This document shows, piece after piece, positions 26,963 to 41,912 of a DNA stretch of 64,000 nucleotides. Origin of the DNA: Candidatus Daviesbacteria bacterium RIFCSPHIGHO2_12_FULL_37_16 (GTDB taxonomy: Bacteria; Patescibacteriota; Microgenomatia; Daviesbacterales; UBA10151); NCBI GenBank assembly GCA_001776785.1, contig MFDF01000008.1:103097-167096 (forward strand). Reading direction: 5' to 3'. The translations under genes were made by a program, and so were the position numbers. The stretch's first letter is position 1; every line of letters begins with the position of its first letter. The notes under the pieces were generated by a model that saw only the letters and a list, made by a program, of their open reading frames with translations, made no database searches and had not been told where the DNA came from.

Positions 26963-27784
26963 ATGAAAACATACCTTGCATCAGTTAAAGATTATTCAGG
27001 ATATCTGCAGCTTAGCAAACGTCAAAAAATTATCATTGCCTCAATTTTAGTAACACTAGGTTTGATTGTTTCAACCCAAACTGTAAGCTTTTTATATGCA
27101 AAGTTTAGACTAATTTTTGTACTGGGAATTATTGGTTACCTTTTATCTTTATGGGCACTTTGGGAGGGAATGTCAAAGTCAAAGGCTTTAATTTTATTAA
27201 TATTACCAACGCTTTATACAGTTTCTGTCACCAGCTTTTATTTTCTTCTTCCTATAAGGTGGTTAACCAGGCTCCCAATAGCAGTTTTATTTGCAATCTC
27301 TTTTTATACACTTTTGCTGTCACAAAATGTATTCAATGTTGCAAGTTTGAGGACGATCCCTTTATATAGGGCTGCCTCAACCTCAAGCTTCCTTTTTACA
27401 ATCATCACATCTTTTTTTCTATATAATGTTGTCTTTGCTCTTAACTTACCATTTTACTGGAATGGGGTAGTAGTGGCATTTTTAAGCTTTCTTTTGATAA
27501 TTCAGGTCCTTTGGTCTGTAAAAATGGAAAAGATAACAGGACAAATAATAACCTATTCTTTAATACTTGGTTTGTTAATAGGTGAGGGGGCAGTGGCCTT
27601 GTCATTTTGGCCTGTTGCCCCAACTATCTGGTCCCTGGCTCTTTCTACGTATCTTTATATATTATTGGGTGTAGTGAATGATTACCTAAGGGATAGGCTT
27701 AATAAAAGACACCTCAGGGAATATATTTTTGTAGCTGCAACAGTTTTAACATTTAGTTTTTTAGTAACATCCTGGTCAGGCTAG
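26963..27784 (+). CDS. polytopic membrane protein
   Basis: At least 7 hydrophobic helices, no motif recognised. Confidence 0.4.
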   Translation: MKTYLASVKDYSGYLQLSKRQKIIIASILVTLGLIVSTQTVSFLYAKFRLIFVLGIIGYLLSLWALWEGMSKSKALILLILPTLYTVSVTSFYFLLPIRWLTRLPIAVLFAISFYTLLLSQNVFNVASLRTIPLYRAASTSSFLFTIITSFFLYNVVFALNLPFYWNGVVVAFLSFLLIIQVLWSVKMEKITGQIITYSLILGLLIGEGAVALSFWPVAPTIWSLALSTYLYILLGVVNDYLRDRLNKRHLREYIFVAATVLTFSFLVTSWSG

Positions 27785-28212
27785 GGAAGTGGAGAAGTCT
27801 GCCACAGGGTAAAAAAAGGATTCGAATAATTCCCGAAACTATAGGACATATCGTGAAAAGAAAGTGATATAGTGTGATATAGTTACAGCGTTAACAATAG
27901 CAAACTATAGGGTCTACTGACCCTGCGAGAACTTCACATACTCCAAAGATCGTTGTCTTGGAGTGCTTCGTTCTCTAAAGTCTAGAGGGAGTGGACTACA
28001 CTTTCTAAGGACCTACTTGTGGATAACTTTAGCAGTTCTTACATAAGATTGTTAACCGTATTTTCATGCGTGAAAAATAAAGCGACATCATTTAGCAGAG
28101 GAGTATGGATATTAAATTATCATAAGCATGAGTGTAGAGGCATACTTTTGCTTCCTGCATCCCTGTCCCTACTAGTATTTACCTCTACTTTATTGACAAC
28201 AAGACTGCCCAT

Positions 28213-28233
28213 ATCCACTATGTCGCACAATGT
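28213..28233. repeat. direct repeat copy 1 (ATCCAyyTTGTCGCACAATrT-like)
   Basis: The GC-containing 11-mer TGTCGCACAAT (28221-28231) recurs at 28702-28712; flanks extend the match to about 17/21. Confidence 0.5.
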
Positions 28234-28693
28234 AGCTTATACGACATTCAGGATGCGTCTTTGCCGGAGGAGTGGTTAAACCCAATATAAAATATTAAAG
28301 ATAAAAAATCAAAAATATTTAAGCGTGGTTATTTGTGCCCGTTTTTTGTCATTTTTACTTTTTAATTTTTACTTTTTAATTTTTCCCATTACTAAAATAA
28401 CAATGTTGGGTTTGGACTGCTATATAGACCTAATCTTAAGATTACCAATTGCACCTCTCCCCTCTGCAAAAGCCGTTTTAGGGGACTTTTTGCGCCTTGT
28501 GCAAAAAGGCACCGGTATGAGTTAAATTTATTTGATCAACTAGAAAGTTGAATTCTTTCTTTTCCAAATAAACCACATCTTCTTGCCAAACTAATAGATC
28601 AGTAAATGTTTGTATTTTTCCATCTTTCATATTCTTTAATCATAAATCTTTAATCTTAAATCCACTATATGAATTATCAACCTTTTATGAACT

Positions 28694-28714
28694 ATCCATC
28701 TTGTCGCACAATAT
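28694..28714. repeat. direct repeat copy 2, 60 bp upstream of the giant-gene start
   Basis: See copy 1. Spacing is 481 bp. Confidence 0.5.
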
Positions 28715-28773
28715 TAAGTTTATTTCCGAGCTCCTCGTTGACTATTTACTAATAATATCTGAAGATATATTTA

Positions 28774-31700
28774 ATGGACTCAGTTCGGGAACTTCTGCAC
28801 AATAAAAAAACCCTCATTACCCTGCTCCTAGTTGGAATCCTGATTTTGGCAATACCTCTGGGGATAAGTCTTGTAAAATACCAGCAAAGGTTGTCCTCCC
28901 AGGCAGCAGTACCTGGTATAGAAGTGACCGAGGGAGATTGTGTTAAGTTAAAAAATGGAGTTAAAGTCTTAACCTGCGGCTTTGTTCCATTAAAGCTTAA
29001 TTTCCCGGCCACCCCAACCCCAACTCCTTCCCCAACCCCTACCCCAACGAGTTCCCCTACTCCCACCAGTTCAATTACGCCATCTCCTACTGGTACAACA
29101 GCATCCGTAAACCTGACCATAAATAACCAGGATGGTCCTATACATGTTGATAGTGGTGCTACTTTGGTTCTGAAGTGGGTAACTAATCAAGTCAGAGCTT
29201 GCTCAGCCTCTGAAGCATGGTCTGGAAGTAAAAATGATGATGGTGCATCAGAGACAATATCAAATATTCTTAGCCCTAAAACATTTGTACTGACATGCGA
29301 ACAAAGGGGTAATCCTGATAACAAAATTTCTGACTCCATAACTGTTGTAGTAGGTAATGGGAATTCGAACCTTAGACAAACTGATCCTGCTAAATTTGAA
29401 GCCGATTTAAAAACCATTAGAGATCTAGGAGGGGGTGTTTTGTACATTCCAGCTGGTAGTTATACTTTGCCTAAAGGCTTTACCATATACTCAAATACAA
29501 CCCTTATGGGAGATGGTAAAGGACAGACCAAATTAAAGTTGCCTTCTGGAGTTGATTCAAAAGTAATCTCTTCCTCTGGTGAGGGGAATAACTCAAATAT
29601 AGTGATTAGGGACTTATCAATTGAAGGTCCAGGTGTAAGTGGTCCCAAAGATGACTGTTGCTATGGAATTAGACTTAGAAATATTAAAAACTCTTATTTA
29701 ATTAATGTTGAGGTGTCCGGTTTTAGTCAAGATGGAATTTATTTAGGTCAAGTTAGTAACAAAGGAGTAGATAGTACAAGAATTACAGGGTGTAGTGTTT
29801 TTGGAAATGGTCGTAACGGTATATCAATAGTTCATGGTCAAGGAAATGTTATAGATGGTTGCAGTATAAATGAAAATGGGTCGAGAGAAGCAGTCTCGGC
29901 TATAGACTTAGAACCCGATGGGGGGTTAAATGTTTCCAATAATGTCATAATGAATAATTCGATTGGAGGAAATGCAGGTAATGGTATTGGTCTAGGCGAT
30001 AATCCAAATGATCCAGGAGGGATTGTGTCAAACAATGGGGTTTGTGGAAATACCTTTTCTGGTAACGGTTTTGCAGAGATTGCTCAGAGTAACGATCAAG
30101 GTACATATACTTCTGGTTGTTCAATTCCTTCTGGTCTGTCAAATCTCCCTGCAGCTCCCTCAAGGCCCTCTGCCAATTCTGGCAGTAGTTTATTTGCAAA
30201 ACTTAAAAACCTTATTCCCACTGTATATGCCCATAATATCCCCCCTCAAATAAGTGGTGTTGACTGTTCCAAACCAAGTGTCTTTGTATCATGGGTAATT
30301 GACCCAAATGACAATCACGATATGGATATATTCCGCGATGGGGTCAAAGTAGGTGAAGCAAATGGATTTTTTGAGGACACTACTGTTACCAGAGGTAGAT
30401 TTTATGCATATTCTATTGGTCATGGAGCAAGTGGAACTAATACCAGTGTATGGGCTGATGTAACCTGTGCCACTACCCCACCACCAACCCAACCTCCCAC
30501 AACACCCCCAACTGCCTCACCTACCCAACCTCCCACCCCACCACCTACCTCTCCTCCAACCTCGCCTCCAACTACACCTCCTGGAGGTCCACAGTGCTCT
30601 GATGATATAAACAATGACTTTGATGGCCTGATTGACATAGAAGACCCACAGTGCCATACGGATGGTGATGCAGATAACCCGGAAACCTATGATCCAACTA
30701 TTAAGTTTGAATCCAGACAGTACAGGCTGGCTGAATCAGAATCTGAACTTCAATTCACCCTTTGGAGTGACTACAGAGAAGATCCCCTTCTTACAGAATT
30801 TGGTCTAACAGATGATTCACCAGGGATCAAGCAAATTTGGGTTGAGTTTAAAGAAACTGATGGTAAAACTACAAAAGACAAAGTTACTATTGAACTTGTG
30901 GAACCGGATCCGGTTATTAAAAGCGCCAGGTGTGATTTTGATTCTATAAACAAACAAAACCTCAAGGTTACCATAAAAGGAGAAAGATTCGGAACAAAAG
31001 AAAGCTCTGTTTTTATGGGTTTAGATCTGTCTGAGGAAGATCTTGACCCAAAGAAAAAACCCTTCTCAGGTGCAGAAGTTTTGGAATGGAATGATAAAGA
31101 AATTACACTTCTTATAAGAAGCTTTAAGACATTTTTATTAGAAAGTGTAAGGCTTAAGATGTCTGTTTTTCGCTCAGACCAATCATTCTCAAACATTGCC
31201 TCCTGTGACATTGGTGCATCAATGATTTCACTGGGAGCCCGGGTTTTCTGCAGGGAGCCTGGAAAATTTGACACAGAAAATGTTAAAGTAACTGTCTTTG
31301 ATAAAGACTCAAAGACTGGCAAAATAAACAAGGCTGAAGAAACTGTAAAGATTGACAAAGATGGAGTTATTACTGGATTAAAAACCATTCTGCAGACTGG
31401 CAAAAATTATGCATTATCGATCAAAGCTCCAAACTCGCTCAGAAGGAATGCCACCTTTGTGGCTGAAGAAGGAACAACTATTGTCACAAGACCAAATGAT
31501 CAGGACTTTATCCTGCCCATTGGAGATATTGCCCCAACCCAAAGCCCTGATGGAAAAATTAACACAGTTGATAAAGCAGAATTAACAAGACAGTGGAGAA
31601 TTTTTGGGGAAAATATAAAAGCTCAGACTGGTGACTTTAACAGGGACACCAAAGTTAACTCCTTTGACTGGGCCTGCATGAGGTATGACTTTAATGCAGA

Positions 31701-32292
31701 AGATGACCCCATACCTACAGATATAGAGCAAATTGCACCAATTTCCCAAAACAATTCTTCCGACGCATCAACTCCTGTTAAGCTGGCTAGTACAGGCGGA
31801 GGATCCTCCTCTATTCAACAAACTCCTGTACCTTTATCAGAAGCTTATTTTTCTTTTATCCCTTTTAAAAGCACAGTAAAAAAAAATTGTGATCACGCTG
31901 TAAATATTTATTTAGATACAGGAGGGAAATTTATTGATGGCGTTGATGTAATTATAAAATTTAATCCAAATGTAATAGCAGATACTACCTTTTTTGACGG
32001 CGTGCTTCCATTTGATAAGTATGAGGTAAATGATGATAATACTAGAGACTTTATAACTATTTCAGCCCCTACTCCAACAAATAAACCATTTAGAGGATCT
32101 GGAATATTTGGCCGAATTGTCTTTAAGGTAAAGCCAAACCCTCCTGTCTCTACTTTAGATTTAAGTTTTGATTTTGATCCCAATGATAAAGGCAAAACTA
32201 CTGATTCAAATATTGTTGAAGATAAGACTCTCAAAGATATCCTTAGCTATGTAGTCAATGGAAATTACCAGATTACATCAGGATCCTGCTAA
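28774..32292 (+). CDS. giant surface protein 1 with the following domains: N-terminal signal anchor; Pro/Thr linkers; right-handed beta-helix (pectate-lyase fold); FN3-like module; one thrombospondin-type-3-like calcium-binding repeat; conserved C-terminal module with a dockerin-like duplicated segment; C-terminal cohesin-like domain
   Basis: 1172-aa ORF. Beta-helix repeats: NVEVSGFSQDGIYLG / CSVFGNGRNGISIVHGQGNVIDGCSINENG. TSP3-like CSDDINNDFDGLIDIEDPQCHTDGDADNPETYDP. Dockerin-like GDIAP...DGKINTVDKAELTRQWRIFG...GDFNRDTKVNSFDWACMRYDF. Cohesin-like AVNIYLDTGG...IIKFNPNVIA...GIFGRIVFKVKPN...FDFDPNDKG. Confidence 0.75.
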   Translation: MDSVRELLHNKKTLITLLLVGILILAIPLGISLVKYQQRLSSQAAVPGIEVTEGDCVKLKNGVKVLTCGFVPLKLNFPATPTPTPSPTPTPTSSPTPTSSITPSPTGTTASVNLTINNQDGPIHVDSGATLVLKWVTNQVRACSASEAWSGSKNDDGASETISNILSPKTFVLTCEQRGNPDNKISDSITVVVGNGNSNLRQTDPAKFEADLKTIRDLGGGVLYIPAGSYTLPKGFTIYSNTTLMGDGKGQTKLKLPSGVDSKVISSSGEGNNSNIVIRDLSIEGPGVSGPKDDCCYGIRLRNIKNSYLINVEVSGFSQDGIYLGQVSNKGVDSTRITGCSVFGNGRNGISIVHGQGNVIDGCSINENGSREAVSAIDLEPDGGLNVSNNVIMNNSIGGNAGNGIGLGDNPNDPGGIVSNNGVCGNTFSGNGFAEIAQSNDQGTYTSGCSIPSGLSNLPAAPSRPSANSGSSLFAKLKNLIPTVYAHNIPPQISGVDCSKPSVFVSWVIDPNDNHDMDIFRDGVKVGEANGFFEDTTVTRGRFYAYSIGHGASGTNTSVWADVTCATTPPPTQPPTTPPTASPTQPPTPPPTSPPTSPPTTPPGGPQCSDDINNDFDGLIDIEDPQCHTDGDADNPETYDPTIKFESRQYRLAESESELQFTLWSDYREDPLLTEFGLTDDSPGIKQIWVEFKETDGKTTKDKVTIELVEPDPVIKSARCDFDSINKQNLKVTIKGERFGTKESSVFMGLDLSEEDLDPKKKPFSGAEVLEWNDKEITLLIRSFKTFLLESVRLKMSVFRSDQSFSNIASCDIGASMISLGARVFCREPGKFDTENVKVTVFDKDSKTGKINKAEETVKIDKDGVITGLKTILQTGKNYALSIKAPNSLRRNATFVAEEGTTIVTRPNDQDFILPIGDIAPTQSPDGKINTVDKAELTRQWRIFGENIKAQTGDFNRDTKVNSFDWACMRYDFNAEDDPIPTDIEQIAPISQNNSSDASTPVKLASTGGGSSSIQQTPVPLSEAYFSFIPFKSTVKKNCDHAVNIYLDTGGKFIDGVDVIIKFNPNVIADTTFFDGVLPFDKYEVNDDNTRDFITISAPTPTNKPFRGSGIFGRIVFKVKPNPPVSTLDLSFDFDPNDKGKTTDSNIVEDKTLKDILSYVVNGNYQITSGSC
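29008..29090 (+). repeat. Pro/Thr/Ser-rich low-complexity linker coding repeat (PTPTPSPTPTPTSSPTPTSS)
   Basis: ccaaccccaactcc... periodic CCn-ACn codons. A second linker lies at 30472-30590. Confidence 0.7.
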
Positions 32293-32377: not shown

Positions 32378-35300
32378 TTGCAGGAATACTTAGAAATTTT
32401 TAAAGGTAAAAAAGTTATAACCAGTTTAGTGGTTCTCCTTTTTTTGGTCATAAGTATCCCACTAGCTTTAAATCTTTTTAATTCAAGGCTTAAACTGTTT
32501 TCCAGGGCAGCTTTAGGAGACCCAATTGAACTTTTAGCAGGAAGGTGTGTTGTTTCTGTTGAAGGTAAAAAGATTAACTGCGAAGAGATACCTTTGAAAT
32601 TACTCTCCCCTCTTGGACCTCCCATTCAAAAACCTCCAGCACCTCAAAACCTGGTTGTAGAATCCTCAAGCTGTGAGATCAACTCTCCAGTCATTAAACT
32701 AAAGTGGGACCATGTTAGTGGAGTTTCGGGCTACAGTGTGATTAGGCGGTGGGGAGATAATGACGGGATTGAAGTCTTTGATTTGGACCCTAATTCCAAT
32801 ACCTTTAATGATTCCCCGGCGTCTGACGGTATTGTCTCAGGTACTGAGGTAAAATATCAGGTTTTAGCAGGCAGTGATATTCAGTCAGACCCATCAAATG
32901 AGGTGACTACCCAAGTCGCACTCTGTGGGGTCCCATCCCCACCCCCCACCGCCTGCAATCCCAGGCCAAATGTTATCAGAAACCTCCAGCTTCTCTCAGC
33001 TGACAGGTACAAAGTTACTGCAACAGTGGGAACAAATACCAGTACCCCTACAAATAGTTTTACCAAAGTTAAATTTAACAGCTTAAGTAATGGAAAAATA
33101 GAAATTGGTGGTACTCCTGGTAGGGCTGCTCCATTTGAATATGGACTCAATGGAGCCCAATCTTATTCATTTGAAGTAAAACTGGATAGGCCCTGCCAGG
33201 AATCAACAACGATTTTTGAACATTTTGATGCCTGTGGAAGCTTTCCTGATTTTCAGGGATCTGGAGCTGGCCCTACTGGTTTTGGCCAATTCCCTCAGTG
33301 TCAAACAAGTACACCTGCCCCAACCCCAACAGCAGTCCCTTTACCAACTCCCCTTCCAGGTGTGACATCCTCAACAGTAACCTCAACTGGAGACTTCAGG
33401 CTTATAGGTTCTGGACAATGCACTGGAGGCTCTCCAACTATAGATCTTGTTTGGGATAGGACAGACGGGGGGCCATATACAATAGAAAAAACTCCTGTCC
33501 CAATCCCGGGCCAGCTTGCAGGTCAGCTAACATTGAGGCCAATATTATCAACCTTTGGAAATTATATTGCACTAAACACGACCTACAGTATCTATATTCA
33601 GTCAGTAAATGGTCCTAAATCAGACACTATCTCTATTGCCTCTCCAGCAACCTGTTCTGGAGCATCACTAATTTTTAAAAATAACTTTTCTTTAACAAGC
33701 ATTTTAAATATTCTTAAACCATTTATTGAAAACACCAAAAATATATTTGGTTCACCTGCGTATGCTATTGATCCAGGTGATACAGGTCCTGGTGACCTGC
33801 AGTTAGGTGTTAGCGGCCGCTGTGACTCATCTTTCAGACCGTACGTAAGTGTTGACTGGAATACTAATGGATATTATTACCATATTTTAAGAAACGGCTC
33901 TGAAATAGCCTGGACACCTGCTGCGATGAGTGATTATGGTGTGCAGTCTGGACAAACTTATACTTACCAACTGATTAAAACAGGAATTGATGAACCTGCT
34001 TCCCCAACACAATCTACATCAGTTCCAACCTGTGTAGCTCCAACTCAGGTTCCAACTCAAGCTCCAACACAAGCTCCAACTCAGGCACCAACTCAAGCTC
34101 CAACTCAGGTTCCAACTCAGCTACCCACTCAGGCTCCTACAACTGTTCCTACTTCAACACCAACTGCATATTACCTCTATCCCCCAACTACTCAGACTGT
34201 TGCTACTTCAAACTGCACTGATATAAGAACAACTAAGGTTTCCTGGGATAGTGTGACTGATTCAGGAGGAAATCATAATTACACTAAAACTTTCACTAAA
34301 GCTGCGCTTGACCAAACCTATCCTCAATGGATAATAGGTGCAGGTCTTGATGGAAATAAGGACTTTCCTGCAACAGTTACTATTGCAGGTCAGTCATACA
34401 CTATTCAGCCTGGTGTCTGGAGTTCACATGATGATACCTATCTTGAGTTTTATTACACAGGTGCATTTAGAAAAATACATGGGATAACTGCAGATAATTT
34501 TACTGTTGCAGGATCAGGAACAATTGCAGTGCCAGCAACAATTACTGTGACTGGAAGCAGTCTAAGTTCATATAACAGTACCCCTGTTCCTCCCAATACA
34601 GGTGTAGATATTAAATATTGTGCTGCAGCTGCTCCTACTCCACAGTGCTCCGATTCGTTGGATAATGATTCAGATGGCAAAATTGACTCTGCCGATCCAG
34701 GTTGTCACACAGATGGTAATCCAAATAATCAAGGTTCATATGATCCAAATGACAATGATGAAAGCAATATTACTGAATGTAATGACACAATAGATAATGA
34801 TGGGGATGGTAAAATAGATTCTGCTGACCCACAGTGCCATACAGATGGTAATGCTGACAATCCATCCTCATACGACCCCAATATCCCTTCTGAAGGCGAA
34901 CCACCCCCAGGCAACTTTACAGTCAAATACAGGCTTGCAGAAACAGAAGAAGGTCTAAGCAGTGCAGAATTCAAGCCATATACTCAGGAGCCTATAATAA
35001 CATCCTTTATACTGCAAAACATAGGTCCTGGGCCAAAGCAGGTTTGGGTAGAATTCGTGGACTCAAATGGAGGTTCAAGAGTTGAGAATATAAACCTTAC
35101 CTGGGTTGAACCTGACCCCACAACTGATGCTGTTTCATGCACATTTGATATTTCCAAAGAAAATGTCAAAGTAGTGATTAAAGGAACCGGATTTACAGCA
35201 ACGCCAGGCAGGATCAGTGTTGATGGTAAAGATGCAGAAATTCTGGAATGGAAAACTGATTTGATAACTGCCTTAGTGAGAAAACCAAGCCTGCCAGCCG

Positions 35301-35917
35301 GTGGATCTAAAAGGTTTGCAATTCAGGTTCTCAGGGCAGACGGCAAGGTTATTACTACTGCCCCCTGTGAAATTGATAGGTCATTAATCTATCTTGGCGC
35401 CCGGGTCTTCTGTAGGGAGGAAGGTAAATTTGATGTAGAAAAAGTCCAAATAAGAGTCGTTGATGATGTAAAAAACAAAGTTGATGAAACTGTCTCAATT
35501 GACAAAGATGGTGTAGTCAAAGGGCTTAAAACTTCAATCCAGGCAGGCAGAAGGTATGGCCTCTCTATAAAAGCTCCAAAATCTGTCAGAAGAAATGTTT
35601 TCTTCACTGCTCAGGAAGGCACAACTATAGTTTCCAATCCAGACGGCAGCCAATTTATCCTTCCGGTTGGTGATATTGCCCCTGCAATTCAGGCTGATGG
35701 TAAGATAAACACACTTGATAGGGCTGAACTAACCAGGCAATGGAGAATCTTTGGTACTCCAAAAGAGCCCCAATCTGGAGACTTAAAGATAGATACCAAA
35801 GTTAACTCTTTTGACTGGGCTTGTCAGAGGTATGACTTTAACGCTCAAGATGATCCTATTTTGAATGAAGTTGAGGCTACACAATCTGCAAGTATTATGA
35901 GTAATAACTTGCAATGA
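32378..35917 (+). CDS. giant surface protein 2 (paralog) with the following domains: N-terminal signal anchor; FN3-like modules; (PTQA)n linker; two TSP3-like calcium-binding repeats; conserved C-terminal module with dockerin-like segment
   Basis: 1179-aa ORF. Its N-terminal module GRCVVSVEGKKINCEEIPLKL parallels giant 1 (GDCVKLKNGVKVLTCGFVPLKL). The C-terminal ~330 aa align closely with giant 1 (IYLGARVFCREEGKFD..., GDIAPAIQADGKINTLDRAELTRQWRIFG...DTKVNSFDWACQRYDF). Confidence 0.75.
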   Translation: MQEYLEIFKGKKVITSLVVLLFLVISIPLALNLFNSRLKLFSRAALGDPIELLAGRCVVSVEGKKINCEEIPLKLLSPLGPPIQKPPAPQNLVVESSSCEINSPVIKLKWDHVSGVSGYSVIRRWGDNDGIEVFDLDPNSNTFNDSPASDGIVSGTEVKYQVLAGSDIQSDPSNEVTTQVALCGVPSPPPTACNPRPNVIRNLQLLSADRYKVTATVGTNTSTPTNSFTKVKFNSLSNGKIEIGGTPGRAAPFEYGLNGAQSYSFEVKLDRPCQESTTIFEHFDACGSFPDFQGSGAGPTGFGQFPQCQTSTPAPTPTAVPLPTPLPGVTSSTVTSTGDFRLIGSGQCTGGSPTIDLVWDRTDGGPYTIEKTPVPIPGQLAGQLTLRPILSTFGNYIALNTTYSIYIQSVNGPKSDTISIASPATCSGASLIFKNNFSLTSILNILKPFIENTKNIFGSPAYAIDPGDTGPGDLQLGVSGRCDSSFRPYVSVDWNTNGYYYHILRNGSEIAWTPAAMSDYGVQSGQTYTYQLIKTGIDEPASPTQSTSVPTCVAPTQVPTQAPTQAPTQAPTQAPTQVPTQLPTQAPTTVPTSTPTAYYLYPPTTQTVATSNCTDIRTTKVSWDSVTDSGGNHNYTKTFTKAALDQTYPQWIIGAGLDGNKDFPATVTIAGQSYTIQPGVWSSHDDTYLEFYYTGAFRKIHGITADNFTVAGSGTIAVPATITVTGSSLSSYNSTPVPPNTGVDIKYCAAAAPTPQCSDSLDNDSDGKIDSADPGCHTDGNPNNQGSYDPNDNDESNITECNDTIDNDGDGKIDSADPQCHTDGNADNPSSYDPNIPSEGEPPPGNFTVKYRLAETEEGLSSAEFKPYTQEPIITSFILQNIGPGPKQVWVEFVDSNGGSRVENINLTWVEPDPTTDAVSCTFDISKENVKVVIKGTGFTATPGRISVDGKDAEILEWKTDLITALVRKPSLPAGGSKRFAIQVLRADGKVITTAPCEIDRSLIYLGARVFCREEGKFDVEKVQIRVVDDVKNKVDETVSIDKDGVVKGLKTSIQAGRRYGLSIKAPKSVRRNVFFTAQEGTTIVSNPDGSQFILPVGDIAPAIQADGKINTLDRAELTRQWRIFGTPKEPQSGDLKIDTKVNSFDWACQRYDFNAQDDPILNEVEATQSASIMSNNLQ
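34038..34140 (+). repeat. about 8 tandem copies of a 12-bp unit (caagctccaact) encoding (PTQA/V)n
   Basis: The linker sequence ...VAPTQVPTQAPTQAPTQAPTQAPTQVPTQLPTQAPTTVPT...; the nucleotide units are near-identical. Confidence 0.8.
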
Positions 35918-35957: not shown

Positions 35958-36773
35958 ATGGAAGTATCTGCCAAACCATTAATATATGTAACTAAAGATT
36001 CTGAGATAAAACTTGAACCTAAAAGCCTGCTTAAACGCAGCTTCCTGAAGATTCTTTTCATAATTTTGGGTGTCATTATTATCGGTGAACTTATTTGGGG
36101 AGTCCGTTCAATAATCTCCTCGCAAAACGCACTTATTCCGTCTGTTTCTGAACTTTCTGAAGGGTCTATAATAGTTGATTCCCCAAAAGTTAATTATCAG
36201 GTTGGTGAAGCAGTCCCTATAACTATCAGGGTGGCCACAGGAGGAAAATTAACTGATGCTGCAGATCTAATCCTAAAATATGACCCCAGTGTTTTAAGCC
36301 TTGTAAGCTCTGATATAAAAATAGGCCAAATCTACAAAGATTACCCGGTTGCAGATAATGACCAGTCCTTTGGAGAAGTTAAAGTCTCAGGAATTACCCC
36401 TCCTGGTGAAACAGGTTTTGGTGGAATTGGTGAACTAGCCAGTCTTCAGTTTAAAGCCCTATCATCTGGCAAAACAGTAGTTTCTGTAGATTTTCAAAAA
36501 GATTCAACAATAGATTCAAATATTGTAGAAGCAAATACCACTCATGACATGCTGGGGGTAGTTTATAATAAAGAACTTTTTATTGGTTCTTCACAGTCAA
36601 CCGCGGTTGAAAAAGATAACAAAAACCAGTGCCAGGGCTACATTCAGCTTTGTCAGACATCTGAAAACCAAACAGGAAGGCAGTTCTGCCAACAGGGAAG
36701 GATACAAGGCAACCAGTGTAAATTTGATCCAAATCTGACAATCAGCTGTGATGAATGCAGGGTTTCACAATAA
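35958..36773 (+). CDS. cohesin-like domain protein, N-terminally membrane-anchored, with C-terminal Cys-rich module
   Basis: TM LKILFIILGVIIIGELIWGV. Cohesin-like VPITIRVATGG...LILKYDPSVLSL...GELASLQFKALSSGKTVVSVDF. The C-terminus has 7 Cys (CQGYIQLCQTSENQTGRQFCQQGRIQGNQCKFDPNLTISCDEC). Confidence 0.6.
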   Translation: MEVSAKPLIYVTKDSEIKLEPKSLLKRSFLKILFIILGVIIIGELIWGVRSIISSQNALIPSVSELSEGSIIVDSPKVNYQVGEAVPITIRVATGGKLTDAADLILKYDPSVLSLVSSDIKIGQIYKDYPVADNDQSFGEVKVSGITPPGETGFGGIGELASLQFKALSSGKTVVSVDFQKDSTIDSNIVEANTTHDMLGVVYNKELFIGSSQSTAVEKDNKNQCQGYIQLCQTSENQTGRQFCQQGRIQGNQCKFDPNLTISCDECRVSQ

Positions 36774-36822
36774 ATTTTTAGCTGACCTTGACTTTAAACC
36801 TTATTGTGCACACAATAGATAT

Positions 36823-37548
36823 ATGGGTAGATTAAAATACATTTTAATGTCCTTCCTGGCCTTAGTAATATTCTCAAGCCCGGCATTGGCCCAGGCTGCA
36901 ACCCTTTCATTAAATCCTTCCGCAGGTACATTTAATAGGGGTTGTGTTTTAGGGGTCAATATTGAGCTTGATACTCAGGGCGGCCAAACTGATGGTACAG
37001 ATGTGATCCTAATTTTTGATCCCACAAAGCTTTCAGTTAAAACCTCTGATATTACAAATGGCAAAATTTATCAGGACTACCCTGGCAACTCTGTAGATGC
37101 CCAATCCGGCAAACTTTCTATATCGGGTATCTCCTCAGTTTCAGAACCCTTTACAGGCAAAGGCACTTTTGCCACAGTCCAATTTCATGTTTTGGAAAAT
37201 GCCCCAACTGGTGCAACTTTAATCAGGTTTGATTTTGATCCCAATGATAAAACCAAAACTACAGACACCAATGTAGTTGAAAGAGGCACAATAGCTGACC
37301 TGTTAAGTAGTGTAACTGATGGAAATTATACTGTTGGTACTGGTTCTTGTGTAAGCCAGGGTCAGGGCGCTGCTGGCACTACCATTGGGGGGCAGGGTCA
37401 GGTTGGTACAGTTTCTGCTACTCCCCTGCCTACTAAAGTTCCTTTAAAAGAGTTACCACAGGGAGGGATATTTGATAATACAATAATTATTGCAGCAATT
37501 GGTACAGTTTTAACTATTATTGGCATTGCAGGCCTGGCAATGCTGTAA
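36823..37548 (+). CDS. cohesin-like domain protein with cleavable signal peptide, Gly/Thr linker and C-terminal LPQGG + TM anchor
   Basis: Signal peptide MGRLKYILMSFLALVIFSSPALAQA. Cohesin-like GVNIELDTQGG...ILIFDPTKLSV...GTFATVQFHVLENAPTGATLIRFDFDPNDKTKTTDTNVVE. C-terminal KELPQGGIFDNTIIIAAIGTVLTIIGIAGLAML. The ORF track opens at 36748; I prefer the Met at 36823, which avoids overlap with the upstream gene. Confidence 0.6.
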   Translation: MGRLKYILMSFLALVIFSSPALAQAATLSLNPSAGTFNRGCVLGVNIELDTQGGQTDGTDVILIFDPTKLSVKTSDITNGKIYQDYPGNSVDAQSGKLSISGISSVSEPFTGKGTFATVQFHVLENAPTGATLIRFDFDPNDKTKTTDTNVVERGTIADLLSSVTDGNYTVGTGSCVSQGQGAAGTTIGGQGQVGTVSATPLPTKVPLKELPQGGIFDNTIIIAAIGTVLTIIGIAGLAML

Positions 37549-37572: not shown

Positions 37573-38499
37573 ATGACAAAATCCATCCCCTCCCTAATTA
37601 CTGACTTCTTAGAATATTTGGAGCTTGAACGCAACTCATCCCAGCGCACTATTAGAAATTACGACCATTACTTAAAAAGGTTTGCTGACTTTGCAGGGGA
37701 AATTACCCCAAAAGATATAAATCTGGAAGTTATAAGAAAATACAGGCTTCATCTTGCTAGATATACAGACCCTAAAACTAAAGCTCCCTTAAAAAGAAAA
37801 ACCCAAAACTTTTTTATGATTGCCTTAAGGGCATTTCTAAGGTATCTTACCAGGTTAGATATTCAAACCCTTTCTGCAGAAAAAGTTGAGCTTGGTGAGC
37901 AAGACCCCTCCCCACTTAAAGTTTTAGATGAAGAAAGCCTGCAAAGGCTTTTAGATGCTCCTGACACCTCTTCAAAAGAAGGGATCAGGGATAAAACTAT
38001 TTTAGAAATGCTTTTCTCAACAGGTCTGAGAGTCTCAGAGCTTGCCTCACTAAACAGGGAGCAGGTTAACTTAGACAGAAAGGAGTTTGGGGTTGTGGGC
38101 AAGGGTGGTAAGGAAAGAGTTGTCTTTTTATCAGATACAGCCTGTCAGTGGATAGAAAGGTACTTAATGATAAGAAAGGACAGTTTTAAGCCTCTTTTTA
38201 TCCGCTACCAGGGGCGTGTTGCCCCGGAAGATAATGGTGAGTATATGAGGCTTTCAACCCGCTCAATAGAAAGGATAGTAGAAAAATATGTTAAAGCTTG
38301 TGGACTCTCAGTTAAAGCTACTCCCCACACCCTGCGTCATAACTTTGCAACTGATCTTTTAATAAACGGAGCGGATATAAGAAGTGTTCAGGAAATGCTT
38401 GGTCATTCGAATATTTCAACAACCCAAATCTACACCCATGTCACCAACAAGCACTTAAAAGATGTTCACAAAGCCTTTCATTCTAAAAATAAGGAATAA
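37573..38499 (+). CDS. tyrosine recombinase, XerC/XerD-type
   Basis: N-terminal SAM-like core-binding domain (LEYLELERNSSQRTIRNY). Catalytic R...HTLRHNFATDLLINGADIRSVQEMLGHSNISTTQIYTHV with the terminal Tyr. Confidence 0.8.
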   Translation: MTKSIPSLITDFLEYLELERNSSQRTIRNYDHYLKRFADFAGEITPKDINLEVIRKYRLHLARYTDPKTKAPLKRKTQNFFMIALRAFLRYLTRLDIQTLSAEKVELGEQDPSPLKVLDEESLQRLLDAPDTSSKEGIRDKTILEMLFSTGLRVSELASLNREQVNLDRKEFGVVGKGGKERVVFLSDTACQWIERYLMIRKDSFKPLFIRYQGRVAPEDNGEYMRLSTRSIERIVEKYVKACGLSVKATPHTLRHNFATDLLINGADIRSVQEMLGHSNISTTQIYTHVTNKHLKDVHKAFHSKNKE

Positions 38500-38979: not shown

Positions 38980-39543
38980 ATGGATACAAAGGACAAAAAA
39001 CTTCTCCTTGATGCATTAATTTTGATACTATCTGTTACCTTTGCAGTCTGGACTATTAATTCAGGTTTTATAGATAAAGTATTTGAAACACTCCTACCAG
39101 TTCAGTTTTTAGCAGAATTCTTTGCAGGCATGCTCTTTACCTCTTTTTTGACCACTCCCCTTTCCCTGGCCTTTATTTATGTTTTATCAGAAAATACAAA
39201 CCCAATGGTTATTGCACTTGTTGGTGCTTTAGGGGCTGCAGCTGGGGATTTCTTCATAGTAAAACTTTTTAGGGATTCAATTTTTCAGGATTTCTCCACA
39301 CTCTCCAGAGACTTAAAGTTAAAAAGATTTCTGCATTTTTTCAGGCATTCCCATTTCAACCATTTAGCCCCCCTGATGGGGATGCTGGTTATTGCATCCC
39401 CATTCCCTGATGAAATAGGTTTGATGCTTTTAAGTGCCAGCAAACTCCAATACTCCCAACTTTTTCTGCTAACATATTTATTGAATGCATTGGGAATTTT
39501 TCTTTTTGCCAGTTCTTTTAACCTGCTCATATGGAAAATGTAG
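38980..39543 (+). CDS. hypothetical membrane protein
   Basis: 4-5 hydrophobic helices. Confidence 0.35.
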   Translation: MDTKDKKLLLDALILILSVTFAVWTINSGFIDKVFETLLPVQFLAEFFAGMLFTSFLTTPLSLAFIYVLSENTNPMVIALVGALGAAAGDFFIVKLFRDSIFQDFSTLSRDLKLKRFLHFFRHSHFNHLAPLMGMLVIASPFPDEIGLMLLSASKLQYSQLFLLTYLLNALGIFLFASSFNLLIWKM

Positions 39544-41912
39544 GATTAACATCTGTTCAGGCAAGAGAAAGACTTGCCCAATACGGTCTAAACCAATTGC
39601 CCGGCAAATCCGGGTCTAACATCTTGTTCCTGCTGCTTTCCCAATTTAATAACTTCCTGGTCTGGCTTTTGCTTGCAGCAGCTGGGTTATCTTTTTTTGT
39701 AGGAGACTTTATAGACGGCTTTTTAATTCTGGTTATTCTTCTTTTAAATAGCGCATTAGGTTTTTGGCAGGAATTTAAAGCCTCTAAAGAACTTGAAGCT
39801 TTGCGGGCAATGGAAGTTTCAGTAAGCAGGGTTTTGAGGGATGGTACCCAAATTGAAATTTCCTCATATGAAATTGTCCCGGGTGATGTAGTTATTGTAG
39901 AAAGTGGTGACAAAATCCCTGCTGATGGCCATCTGATTGAATCCTTTGACCTTGCTGCCAATGAAGCGGCATTAACAGGAGAATCACTTCCTGTTGCCAA
40001 AACTGCCTCCAAAGATGATGGGGTTTTATATTTTGGATCAACAGTTTCTTCAGGAAGGGGGAAAATTCTAATTGAACAAACAGGTATAAATACCCGCTTT
40101 GGTAAAATTGCCCTGACACTTTCAAACATTTTAGAAGAACCCACTCCCCTTGAAAACTCCCTAAAAGACCTGGCTTTAAAAATTGGGATTCTGGCAGTAA
40201 TTATCTCCATATTTCTGGCAGCCCTAAGATATTTTCAGGGAGAGCAAATTCTGGAGGTAATATTTACCTCAATCGCCATGATGGTGGCAGCAGTTCCGGA
40301 AGGGCTCCCCGCAGTTATAACAGTCCTTTTAGCTTTAGGTGTCAGAAGAATGTATAAGAAAAAAACAATAGTTAGAAAACTATCCGCAATAGAATCTTTA
40401 GGTGCAACCTCTGTTGTCTTAACAGATAAAACAGGAACCTTAACTAAAAACCAGATGTCTGTTAGAAAAATTTTTACAGATAAGTCAAATCTTTCAGAGA
40501 TGTTAAGAGGCTCTGTTATCTGCAACAGTGCTTCCCTTGTAATGAAAGAGGACTTGCCTGGCCGGCAGGCAGGCCATGGAGGTTATGATATTTTAGGTGA
40601 CACCACAGAAGGTGCTCTATTAATTTATGCAAAAAATAAAGGTTTGGATATAGAAGAAGTCCGTTCTTCTGGAAAGATAGAAATGGAGCTGCCCTTTGAT
40701 TTAAAAAGAAGAAGGATGAGTGTACTTTGGGCTGAAGGAAATAAATTATCACTCTTTTGCAAAGGTGCTCCCGAAGTTATCTTATCTCTTTGTAAGCTTA
40801 CTCCTTCAAAACACAAAGAATTAACTACAATTTTTGAAACTTTTGCCAAAGAAGGATTAAGGGTAATTGCGGTTGCCAAGAGGGATAATTTAGTTAAAGG
40901 TGTAGAAAAAGATTTGGAAAAAAATCTTAAGTTTTTAGGTTTTATAGCTATTGCAGATGCTCCAAGGGAAGAAGCAAGTTTGCAAATTGAAAAATTAACA
41001 AAAGCCGGAATCGCAGTAGTTATGATTACGGGAGACAATGAGTTAACGGCTAAAGCCATAGCGGAAGAGGTTGGTCTTTTAAGGATGGGAGATGAAGTTA
41101 TGACTGGCGCACAGCTCGATGAACTCTCAGATGATAAGCTTCTGGAAAAACTTCCAACCATTAAAGTTTTTGCAAGAGTAGTCCCTGAACACAAACTAAG
41201 GGTTGTTACTGCTTACCAACAGTTAGGAAAAGTTGTGGCAGTCACAGGAGATGGGGTCAATGATGCACTTGCCCTAAAAGCAGCCCATGTTGGCATAGCC
41301 ATGGGAGATACAGGGACTGATGTGGCCAAGCAGGCAGCAGACATAGTTATCCTTGATGATAATCTAACTACTATTGTTGATGCTGTTGAGCAGGGAAGGT
41401 TAATATATTCAAACATTATAAAAACAGTCAAATTTTTAATGACAGGAAATCTTTCTGAAGTTCTGGTTATTGTAGGAGCAGCAGTAATAGGGTTCCCCAC
41501 TCCCCTCCTGCCTGCCCAAATATTGTGGATTAACTTTGTTACAGACGGCTTCCCTGCCCTGGCCTTATCTGCAGATGAAGCCTCAGATCACATTATGAGG
41601 GCAAGCCCAAGAGATCCAAATAAATCTATATTAGATCAAAGCAGTTTGAAATTTATTCTTGGTTTTGGAATTTCCATAGCTGTAATTAATTTAGCTGGTT
41701 TTACTTATCTGTATAACTTTTATAATTTAGATGCTGCCCGCTCATTTGTCTTTACAGGAATAGTTATTACTCAAATGATAATGATTTTTATAATGCGCCG
41801 CCACCACTCAATTTGGTCTAATAAATACTTACTAGCAGCAGTTGGATTTGTCCTTCTAATGCAGCTTGCTATCATAACTATTCCCCAGCTGAGAGTACTT
41901 TTTAGTCTTTGA
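39531..41912 (+). CDS. P-type ATPase, type IIA (Ca2+/cation-transporting)
   Basis: Cation-ATPase N-terminus MENVGLTSVQARERLAQYGLNQLP, phosphorylation site DKTGTLT, hinge TGDGVNDALALKAAHVGIAMG, PEGL motif (AAVPEGLP). Confidence 0.85.
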   Translation: MENVGLTSVQARERLAQYGLNQLPGKSGSNILFLLLSQFNNFLVWLLLAAAGLSFFVGDFIDGFLILVILLLNSALGFWQEFKASKELEALRAMEVSVSRVLRDGTQIEISSYEIVPGDVVIVESGDKIPADGHLIESFDLAANEAALTGESLPVAKTASKDDGVLYFGSTVSSGRGKILIEQTGINTRFGKIALTLSNILEEPTPLENSLKDLALKIGILAVIISIFLAALRYFQGEQILEVIFTSIAMMVAAVPEGLPAVITVLLALGVRRMYKKKTIVRKLSAIESLGATSVVLTDKTGTLTKNQMSVRKIFTDKSNLSEMLRGSVICNSASLVMKEDLPGRQAGHGGYDILGDTTEGALLIYAKNKGLDIEEVRSSGKIEMELPFDLKRRRMSVLWAEGNKLSLFCKGAPEVILSLCKLTPSKHKELTTIFETFAKEGLRVIAVAKRDNLVKGVEKDLEKNLKFLGFIAIADAPREEASLQIEKLTKAGIAVVMITGDNELTAKAIAEEVGLLRMGDEVMTGAQLDELSDDKLLEKLPTIKVFARVVPEHKLRVVTAYQQLGKVVAVTGDGVNDALALKAAHVGIAMGDTGTDVAKQAADIVILDDNLTTIVDAVEQGRLIYSNIIKTVKFLMTGNLSEVLVIVGAAVIGFPTPLLPAQILWINFVTDGFPALALSADEASDHIMRASPRDPNKSILDQSSLKFILGFGISIAVINLAGFTYLYNFYNLDAARSFVFTGIVITQMIMIFIMRRHHSIWSNKYLLAAVGFVLLMQLAIITIPQLRVLFSL

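Follow-up and report, generated by a model that had tools for sequence, protein, structure and literature searches.

Teneurins of animals contain a cysteine-rich (C-rich) domain whose structure, 7PLP, was solved at 1.5 Å (Meijer et al., 2022; PMC9058538). In this domain, three Ca2+ ions are coordinated by the side chains of E835, D840, D843, N844, D845, D847, D851, D854 and D856 and by backbone carbonyls at A837, K842 and L849 (PMC9058538). The coordination at sites I and II is like that in thrombospondin type 3 repeats, and the coordination at site III is like that in low-density lipoprotein class A (LDL-A) modules; the disulfides are C838–C857, C852–C863 and C858–C869, and the domain contributes to a dimer interface (PMC9058538). 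Its consensus, ExxCx(D/N)xxDx(D/E)xDxxxDCxxx(D/E)CCxxxxCxxxxxC, includes six Cys residues, and a diatom or algal origin has been proposed for it (Tucker et al., 2012); that the teneurin motif resembles “metal-binding motifs” of bacteria and algae has been noted in earlier literature. Here, three copies of an acidic, Cys-bounded repeat are compared with this domain. They are encoded by two adjacent open reading frames (ORFs) for large proteins, termed giant 1 and giant 2, in Candidatus Daviesbacteria bacterium RIFCSPHIGHO2_12_FULL_37_16, a bacterium of the candidate phyla radiation (CPR). The window that was analyzed is a stretch of 64,000 nucleotides (contig MFDF01000008.1 of assembly GCA_001776785.1, positions 103,097 to 167,096 of the forward strand), and all positions below are those of the window. 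An initial annotation, made from the DNA alone, had described the repeats as thrombospondin type 3-like calcium-binding units of about 35 residues. The analysis reported here indicates that the unit is probably an independently folded extracellular module of the NCBIfam family NF033662, with a teneurin-homologous, Ca2+-wrapping and disulfide-clamped core, which serves as a spacer or connector.

Sequence and family assignment of the repeats

All three peptides quoted in the initial annotation, two in giant 2 and one in giant 1, were located exactly and in frame in the ORFs (Table 2); the spans given for them (34641-34885 and 30593-30697) enclose the peptides but begin out of frame. A hidden Markov model (HMM) of the repeat, built from 248 homologous units, detected no copies other than these three in a six-frame translation of the window, and a degenerate DNA pattern of the C..C core identified the same three sites, the expected number being 0.00 in 100 shuffles. 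The DxDxDGxxDxxD Ca2+-binding motif is legible in the sequence of the copies (DNDSDGKIDSAD, DNDGDGKIDSAD and NNDFDGLIDIED), and the description of a D-x-D-x-D-G loop closed by a Cys pair proved accurate; the core and the Cys residues equivalent to C838 and C857 of teneurin are present in all copies. The repeating unit, by contrast, is longer than the 35 residues or so first proposed: the conserved unit comprises 43–44 amino acids, including a Cys-free tail (HTDGNxxNPxSYDP), and the repeat period in giant 2 is 44 amino acids.

All three copies are matched by the NCBIfam model NF033662 (acid_disulf_rpt), and giant 2 scores above its curated cut-off, with 60.5 bits in two stretches against a cut-off of 41; the isolated two-repeat peptide of giant 2 scores 64.4 bits. 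The giant 1 copy reaches 19.8–25.6 bits, which is under the cut-off, so that giant 1 alone, with its one degenerate copy, would not be named by the model. In that copy, N613 stands at the first loop ligand, where Asp is found in 100% of 218 units, and F616 takes the place of the usual Gly (Ser, Asn or Ala also occur); N613–F616 correspond to window positions 30610-30621. The two Cys residues of the units fall on model positions 7 and 26, which bear most of the Cys weight, and replacement of both by Ser in silico lowers the score of the giant 2 copy 2 peptide from 37.7 to 24.9 bits (-12.8 bits) and that of a reference bacterial unit from 45.2 to 30.6 bits. A Cys at model position 21 (core position 15) is weakly favored (about +3 bits), and one at position 3 is disfavored. 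The model spans 32 positions and ends about 6 residues past the second Cys, whereas the unit described here is about 12 residues longer (..NPxSYDP). A literature search found no paper under the name of this NCBIfam family.

The searches with TSP_3 and EF-hand models that the initial annotation had recommended did not bear out a membership in either family. Pfam TSP_3 gave no match at E ≤ 10 with the isolated repeats or at E ≤ 1 with the whole proteins, in searches in which HMMER filters may conceal matches above E ~0.1, and EF-hand_1, EF-hand_5, EF-hand_6 and EF-hand_7 scored 9–13 bits on the repeats against cut-offs of 25–30 (E 0.1–1.2). On the repeats, Cu-binding_MopE (PF11617) had no match at E ≤ 10, the Dockerin match was not significant (E 4.4), and Excalibur-type models yielded nothing significant (absent or E ≥ 4). 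The repeat has a DxDxDG-type loop of 12 residues in common with dockerins and EF-hands, and dockerin-like modules occur elsewhere in the same proteins; however, helices flank the loop in dockerins and EF-hands, whereas the model of the repeat lacks flanking helices. With thrombospondin type 3 repeats (PF02412; TSP-1 structure 1UX6), it has in common the DxDxDGxxDxxD motif and a disulfide-pinned build that is poor in secondary structure, but the Cys spacing differs, no thrombospondin C-terminal lectin-like domain is present here, and no HMM or profile similarity was detected. Judged by sequence comparison, the correct family is NF033662, teneurin-C-rich-like, and not TSP_3.

The DNA identity among the three copies is only 63–68%. 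A recent tandem duplication is ruled out by this value, and, because the copies have diverged to this extent, any duplication behind them would be old. The view that the difference in copy number between the two proteins reflects module duplication is thus tenable, but not for a recent event, and one copy versus two is unremarkable, because the copy number ranges from 2 to 44 across the family.

Comparison with the teneurin C-rich domain

In searches of all PDB sequences, 7PLP was the best match of both the repeat peptide (E 0.0015) and a 57-unit profile (E 6.6e-4). Other teneurins follow (Ten-2, Ten-3, Ten-4 and fly Ten-m), all of them aligned over the C..C core, and thrombospondin and COMP chains are absent from the profile matches at E ≤ 10. 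The NF033662 model, for its part, scores the teneurin-4 peptide at 36.7 bits. The core CxDxxDNDGDGxxDxxDPxC of the repeats is ~60% identical to that of the teneurin C-rich domain, and the positions of C838 and C857 are kept. In the alignment from the PDB searches (Table 1), both giant 2 copies retain seven of the nine Ca2+-ligand side chains of 7PLP; the giant 1 copy retains six of these and has N613 at the position of D843. By analogy with this closest solved relative, which is the C-rich domain of teneurin-4 and holds three Ca2+ ions, the proposal of a Ca2+-binding loop is very probably correct. The attribute “thrombospondin type 3-like” is apt for sites I and II of 7PLP, but it is not backed by a Pfam TSP_3 match or by any thrombospondin or COMP chain in the PDB.

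The differences concern the third site, the disulfides and the arrangement of the domain. The LDL-A-like third Ca2+ site of teneurin is probably missing in the repeats, because E835 and D856 have no conserved counterparts there. The six-Cys teneurin consensus is not matched by the repeats, in which only the first Cys and the C857 equivalent are present, the equivalents of C852, C858, C863 and C869 being Ser or Ile, His, or absent. Thus, the teneurin domain has six Cys residues, three disulfides and a conotoxin-like C-terminal part, whereas the repeats have two Cys residues followed by the Cys-free tail; the former is a single-copy domain, the bacterial repeat one that is arrayed in tandem. Both are placed as connectors between other extracellular domains.

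Table 1. Residues of the three repeat copies aligned with the C-rich domain of teneurin-4.
Teneurin-4	Giant 2 copy 1	Giant 2 copy 2	Giant 1
C838	C757	C801	C608
D840	D759	D803	D610
D843	D762	D806	N613
N844	N763	N807	N614
D845	D764	D808	D615
D847	D766	D810	D617
D851	D770	D814	D621
D854	D773	D817	D624
C857	C776	C820	C627
E835 (not kept)	T754	I798	G605
D856 (not kept)	G775	Q819	Q626
C852 (not kept)	S771	S815	I622
C858 (not kept)	H777	H821	H628

Predicted fold and proposed role

The structure prediction that had been suggested for the unit was performed with AlphaFold2 on the 43-amino-acid unit, using the 57-unit alignment, and yielded a model with a predicted local distance difference test score (pLDDT) of 96.4 and a predicted template modeling score (pTM) of 0.70. 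A single-sequence AlphaFold2 prediction of 114 amino acids covering both repeats had a pLDDT of 37.7 and was discarded, and the alignment-based model alone was used. This model contains nearly no regular secondary structure; a beta-bridge links H24 and Y35, both of which are nearly invariant tail residues. Its top PDB matches in Foldseek were 7PLP_A, 7BAM and 7BAN, with a root-mean-square deviation of 0.4 Å over 18–20 columns and 60–61% identity, and with E-values of 1.2–1.7, which are not significant at such short length. In the predicted model, the backbone fold of the Ca2+-binding core is the same as that of the teneurin C-rich domain.

On the basis of this model and the ligand alignment, the core CxDxxDNDxDGxxDxxDPxC is proposed to wrap around about two Ca2+ ions, which would be coordinated by backbone carbonyls and by the side chains of Asp and Asn residues at core positions 3, 6, 7, 8, 10, 14 and 17, in a geometry like that of thrombospondin type 3 repeats. 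The loop would be clamped by a disulfide that joins its two terminal Cys residues, and the Cys-free tail (H-T-D-G-N-x-x-N-P-x-S-Y-D-P) would fold back onto the core, replacing the two extra disulfides of teneurin. The modules sit between the variable N-terminal part of each protein and a shared C-terminal module ending in a dockerin, and are joined on their upstream side to a Pro/Thr-rich linker in giant 1 and directly to a region with no Pfam match in giant 2. They are presumed to lie outside the cell because both giants have an N-terminal transmembrane anchor. Most likely, they would act as Ca2+-rigidified spacers or connectors that keep a distance between the module with the dockerin and the remainder of the protein; a Ca2+-rigidified, disulfide-clamped spacer would be the best-supported role. 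Overall, the repeat behaves as a mobile module of linker or stalk regions: its arrays precede LPXTG signals in some homologs, and Ser/Pro-rich linkers are found in its place in the closest homologs of the C-terminal module.

Several points weigh against this proposal. The name of the family is “acidic double-disulfide repeat”, although the units described here have only two Cys residues and could form at most one disulfide. The main habitat of CPR bacteria is anoxic groundwater, and disulfides outside the cell need not form there. The giant 1 copy, with N613 and F616, may represent a weakened or decaying site that binds Ca2+ weakly. The modeled tail has no solved counterpart, and the role assigned to it is a guess. 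Finally, no experiment on any bacterial member of the family was found.

Other readings of the repeats differ in how they account for the same motif. A true thrombospondin type 3 identity of the units, with membership in Pfam TSP_3, is very improbable: the DxDxDGxxDxxD motif followed by a Cys does resemble the C-type motif of these repeats, and two Ca2+ sites (I and II) of the nearest homolog of solved structure have been described in such terms (PMC9058538), but neither the isolated repeats nor the whole proteins are matched by TSP_3 at the thresholds given above, the 57-unit profile finds every teneurin in the PDB and none of the thrombospondin or COMP chains, and no thrombospondin C-terminal domain follows the repeats. 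There is a small chance that calcium is not the metal bound by the module. Copper, which has been proposed for the MopE-like motif, and lanthanides are candidates, as is a metal in a Cys2-His site made up of the two Cys residues and the conserved His after the second Cys. Weak partial matches of the 57-unit profile to lanmodulin-type EF loops in the PDB (E 0.004–0.0075) and the His that follows the second Cys in 80–90% of the units would fit such a role; however, the lanmodulin matches span 10–14 residues with no single stretch being significant, the Cu-binding_MopE model does not match and the MopE link is a literature remark on the teneurin core, the all-oxygen Asp/Asn ligands favor hard cations, and in the crystal structure of the homologous core the bound metal is Ca2+ and the equivalent Cys residues are joined by a disulfide (PMC9058538).

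A small but appreciable chance remains that the repeats are chiefly a protein or glycan interaction module, for example a second cohesin-binding element or an adhesion element, rather than a passive spacer. A cohesin–dockerin set is encoded in the neighborhood and the teneurin C-rich domain takes part in a dimer interface (PMC9058538), but the Dockerin match of the repeat reaches only E 4.4, its model has none of the dockerin-type helices, and the repeat occurs across hundreds of unrelated architectures, chiefly as part of a stalk next to an anchor, which fits a generic structural role better than a specific partner. The idea that the segment is a mere acidic low-complexity linker, in which the Cys residues and DxDxDG motif are coincidental, is scarcely credible; the region does abound in D, N, G and P residues and adjoins Pro/Thr-rich linkers, but it contains three matches where 0 are expected by chance, with HMM E-values of 1e-17 to 1e-22, six invariant columns and a model pLDDT of 96.

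Conservation and distribution of the family

The consensus of the unit is PQCSDGxDNDGDGKIDAADPGCHTDGNANNPxSYDPNDDDE, in which the ligand positions are 92–100% conserved (218 units), and six columns are invariant in the 57-unit alignment. The initial annotation had named a lack of similarity to Ca2+-binding repeat models, or of Cys conservation in homologs, as grounds for giving up its reading, and neither applies; with a Cys-agnostic pattern, the first Cys was found in 249/249 units and the second in 241/249. More than 100 homologous proteins have only the repeat in common; among them are PKD, Big, CARDB and choice-of-anchor-P proteins, one sortase-family protein and many proteins with an LPXTG anchor, and their sources include CPR bacteria (Kaiserbacteria), Acidimicrobiales, Actinokineospora and Solirubrobacteraceae. 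In this homolog set, the modal period is 43–48 amino acids with 2–11 copies per protein, and the tandem array ends 0–30 amino acids before the LPXTG sorting signal in 35 of the 105 repeat-bearing homologs.

In an exhaustive profile search of 1.84 billion cluster representatives, 7,722 proteins passed a threshold of E ≤ 0.001; the number fell to 2,853 at E ≤ 1e-10 and to 484 at E ≤ 1e-30, and a single protein can contain as many as 44 copies. The best 138 of the 7,722 proteins contain 1,453 cores, of which 9% have the His-tail as found here and 8% a teneurin-like third Cys; the remaining cores in these 138 proteins have two Cys residues and other tails. A DNA pattern scan of GTDB species genomes detected at least 120 loci, and those listed come from Myxococcota, Bacteroidota, Planctomycetes, Chloroflexi, Actinomycetes, CPR bacteria (Peribacteria and Saccharibacteria) and Nanoarchaeota. 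Among the matches listed, 51 of 166 instances have the teneurin-like three-Cys core CxDGxDNDGDGLxDCxDPDC, in genomes of Bacteroidota and Myxococcota.

For the origin of the teneurin C-rich domain, a prokaryotic source seems no less plausible than a diatom or algal one. It is possible, if rather doubtful, that the tail-bearing form is a distinct 43-amino-acid Ca2+ domain, in which an extra Ca2+ site built by the invariant tail residues D26 and N31 replaces two teneurin disulfides, and that it constitutes a Cys-poor, Ca2+-dependent rigid stalk unit of monoderms (CPR bacteria and Actinobacteria), the family, with its three-Cys variants in Bacteroidota and Myxococcota, being the prokaryotic pool behind the teneurin C-rich domain instead of a diatom or alga.

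Host proteins and gene neighborhood

The two giants are adjacent ORFs on the same strand (Table 2), and the GC content is 37%; an identical giant 2 protein is encoded on 21 metagenome contigs. Giant 1 consists, in order, of an N-terminal transmembrane anchor, a beta-helix domain, a Pro/Thr-rich linker, one repeat, a C-terminal module shared with giant 2 and a C-terminal cohesin. Giant 2 consists of an N-terminal transmembrane anchor, Cys-bearing regions without a Pfam match, two repeats and the shared C-terminal module. This module of ~330 amino acids ends in a dockerin-like segment, which scores 22–23 bits in Pfam, around the cut-off, in both proteins. In blastp, residues 607–994 of giant 1 align with residues 800–1177 of giant 2 as a block of 398 amino acids with 49.7% identity. 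The giant 1 copy and giant 2 copy 2 correspond in position, both heading this block, in agreement with the earlier statement that the repeats immediately precede a conserved C-terminal module. The repeat and the module are nevertheless not one conserved unit, a possibility that is ruled out by 17 close homologs of the module that lack the repeat and have Ser/Pro-rich linkers at its place; because the closest homologs of the module lack it, the repeat is not tied to the module.

The giants also have in common an N-terminal anchor region with 32% identity and a conserved Cys pair, as well as a short internal block with 35% identity. Their middle parts differ, with a beta-helix in giant 1 and no family match in giant 2 (Fn3/Ig-like only by eye).

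Two membrane-anchored cohesin-domain proteins are encoded directly downstream of giant 2 and are likely partners of the dockerins of the giants. Together with the giants, they make up a compact cohesin–dockerin set in a CPR genome (31549-32289, 35693-35818 and 35958-37548), and this set, in which giant 1 carries both domain types, suggests a self-assembling surface scaffold. The giant–cohesin block is flanked upstream by a DUF5656 multi-pass membrane protein and downstream by a XerC/D-type tyrosine recombinase. The region of ~990 bp upstream of giant 1 contains no ORF of at least 100 amino acids wholly inside it on either strand, and Rfam gave no match at the gathering score there, only a chance-level one (E 0.14); the gap may hold an extended promoter or leader, or else an RNA not yet described. 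Further on, 3.6 kb downstream of the giants, lies the gene of a P-type ATPase (P2-type, Ca/Mg/Na-like) that has Cation_ATPase_N and Cation_ATPase_C domains; its identical UniRef protein is named “P-type Cu(+) transporter”, which is at odds with the domain set. The remainder of the window encodes ordinary housekeeping proteins (RuvC, YebC, GyrA/B, a LysRS-type tRNA synthetase and an M1 peptidase), of which RuvC and YebC have identical counterparts in named genomes of Candidatus Daviesbacteria (Microgenomates).

Table 2. Positions of the repeats, their host genes and neighboring features in the window.
Feature	Nucleotides	Strand	Residues	Remarks
Giant 1	28774-32292	+	1172 aa	
Giant 1 anchor region	28774-29040		1-89	
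Giant 1 internal block			500-596	
Giant 1 sole repeat copy	30589..30726	+		repeat HMM 53.5 bits, E 7e-18
Giant 1 repeat peptide	30595-30696	+	608-641	CSDDINNDFDGLIDIEDPQCHTDGDADNPETYDP
Giant 1 repeat core	30595-30654	+	C608..C627	
Giant 1 dockerin-like segment (in shared C-terminal module)	31549-31680	+	926-969	
Giant 1 C-terminal cohesin	31822-32289	+	~1017-1172	38.6% identical to ORF 36748-37548, E 7e-32
Giant 2	32378-35917	+	1179 aa	TTG start
Giant 2 anchor region	32378-32644		1-89	
Giant 2 internal block			487-584	
Giant 2 repeat copy 1 (full 44-aa unit)	34637..34768	+		repeat HMM 67.1 bits, E 4e-22; NF033662 match
Giant 2 copy 1 peptide	34646-34747	+	757-790	CSDSLDNDSDGKIDSADPGCHTDGNPNNQGSYDP
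Giant 2 copy 1 core	34646-34705		C757..C776	followed by tail HTDGNPNNQGSYDPNDNDE
Giant 2 repeat copy 2	34772..34906	+		repeat HMM 61.5 bits, E 2e-20; best NF033662 stretch aa 797-825
Giant 2 copy 2 peptide	34778-34879	+	801-834	CNDTIDNDGDGKIDSADPQCHTDGNADNPSSYDP
Giant 2 copy 2 core	34778-34837		C801..C820	followed by tail HTDGNADNPSSYDP
Giant 2 dockerin-like segment (in shared C-terminal module)	35693-35818	+	1106-1147	PDB dockerin 5K39_B, E 0.015
Membrane-anchored cohesin-domain protein	35958-36773	+		Pfam Cohesin E 4.7e-07
Membrane-anchored cohesin-domain protein	36748-37548	+		Pfam Cohesin E 1.1e-08
DUF5656 multi-pass membrane protein	26963-27784			
Gap upstream of giant 1	27785-28773			
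XerC/D-type tyrosine recombinase	37573-38499			
P-type ATPase	39531-41912			

Significance

The repeat belongs to a known and very abundant kind, and nothing in it is surprising to a specialist; the Cys-free tail subtype and the wide prokaryotic spread of teneurin-like cores are only mildly novel. The analysis provides a structure-based annotation for a segment of each of two Daviesbacteria surface proteins (~1,170–1,180 residues) that otherwise lack annotation, and the predicted Ca2+-binding, disulfide-clamped connectors beside a cohesin–dockerin set support the idea of calcium-dependent surface assembly in a CPR organism. The family comprises thousands of clusters and has neither a matching Pfam entry nor an experimentally studied bacterial member, its sole solved relative being found in animal teneurins. 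A bacterial structure of this family would make clearer where the teneurin C-rich domain came from.

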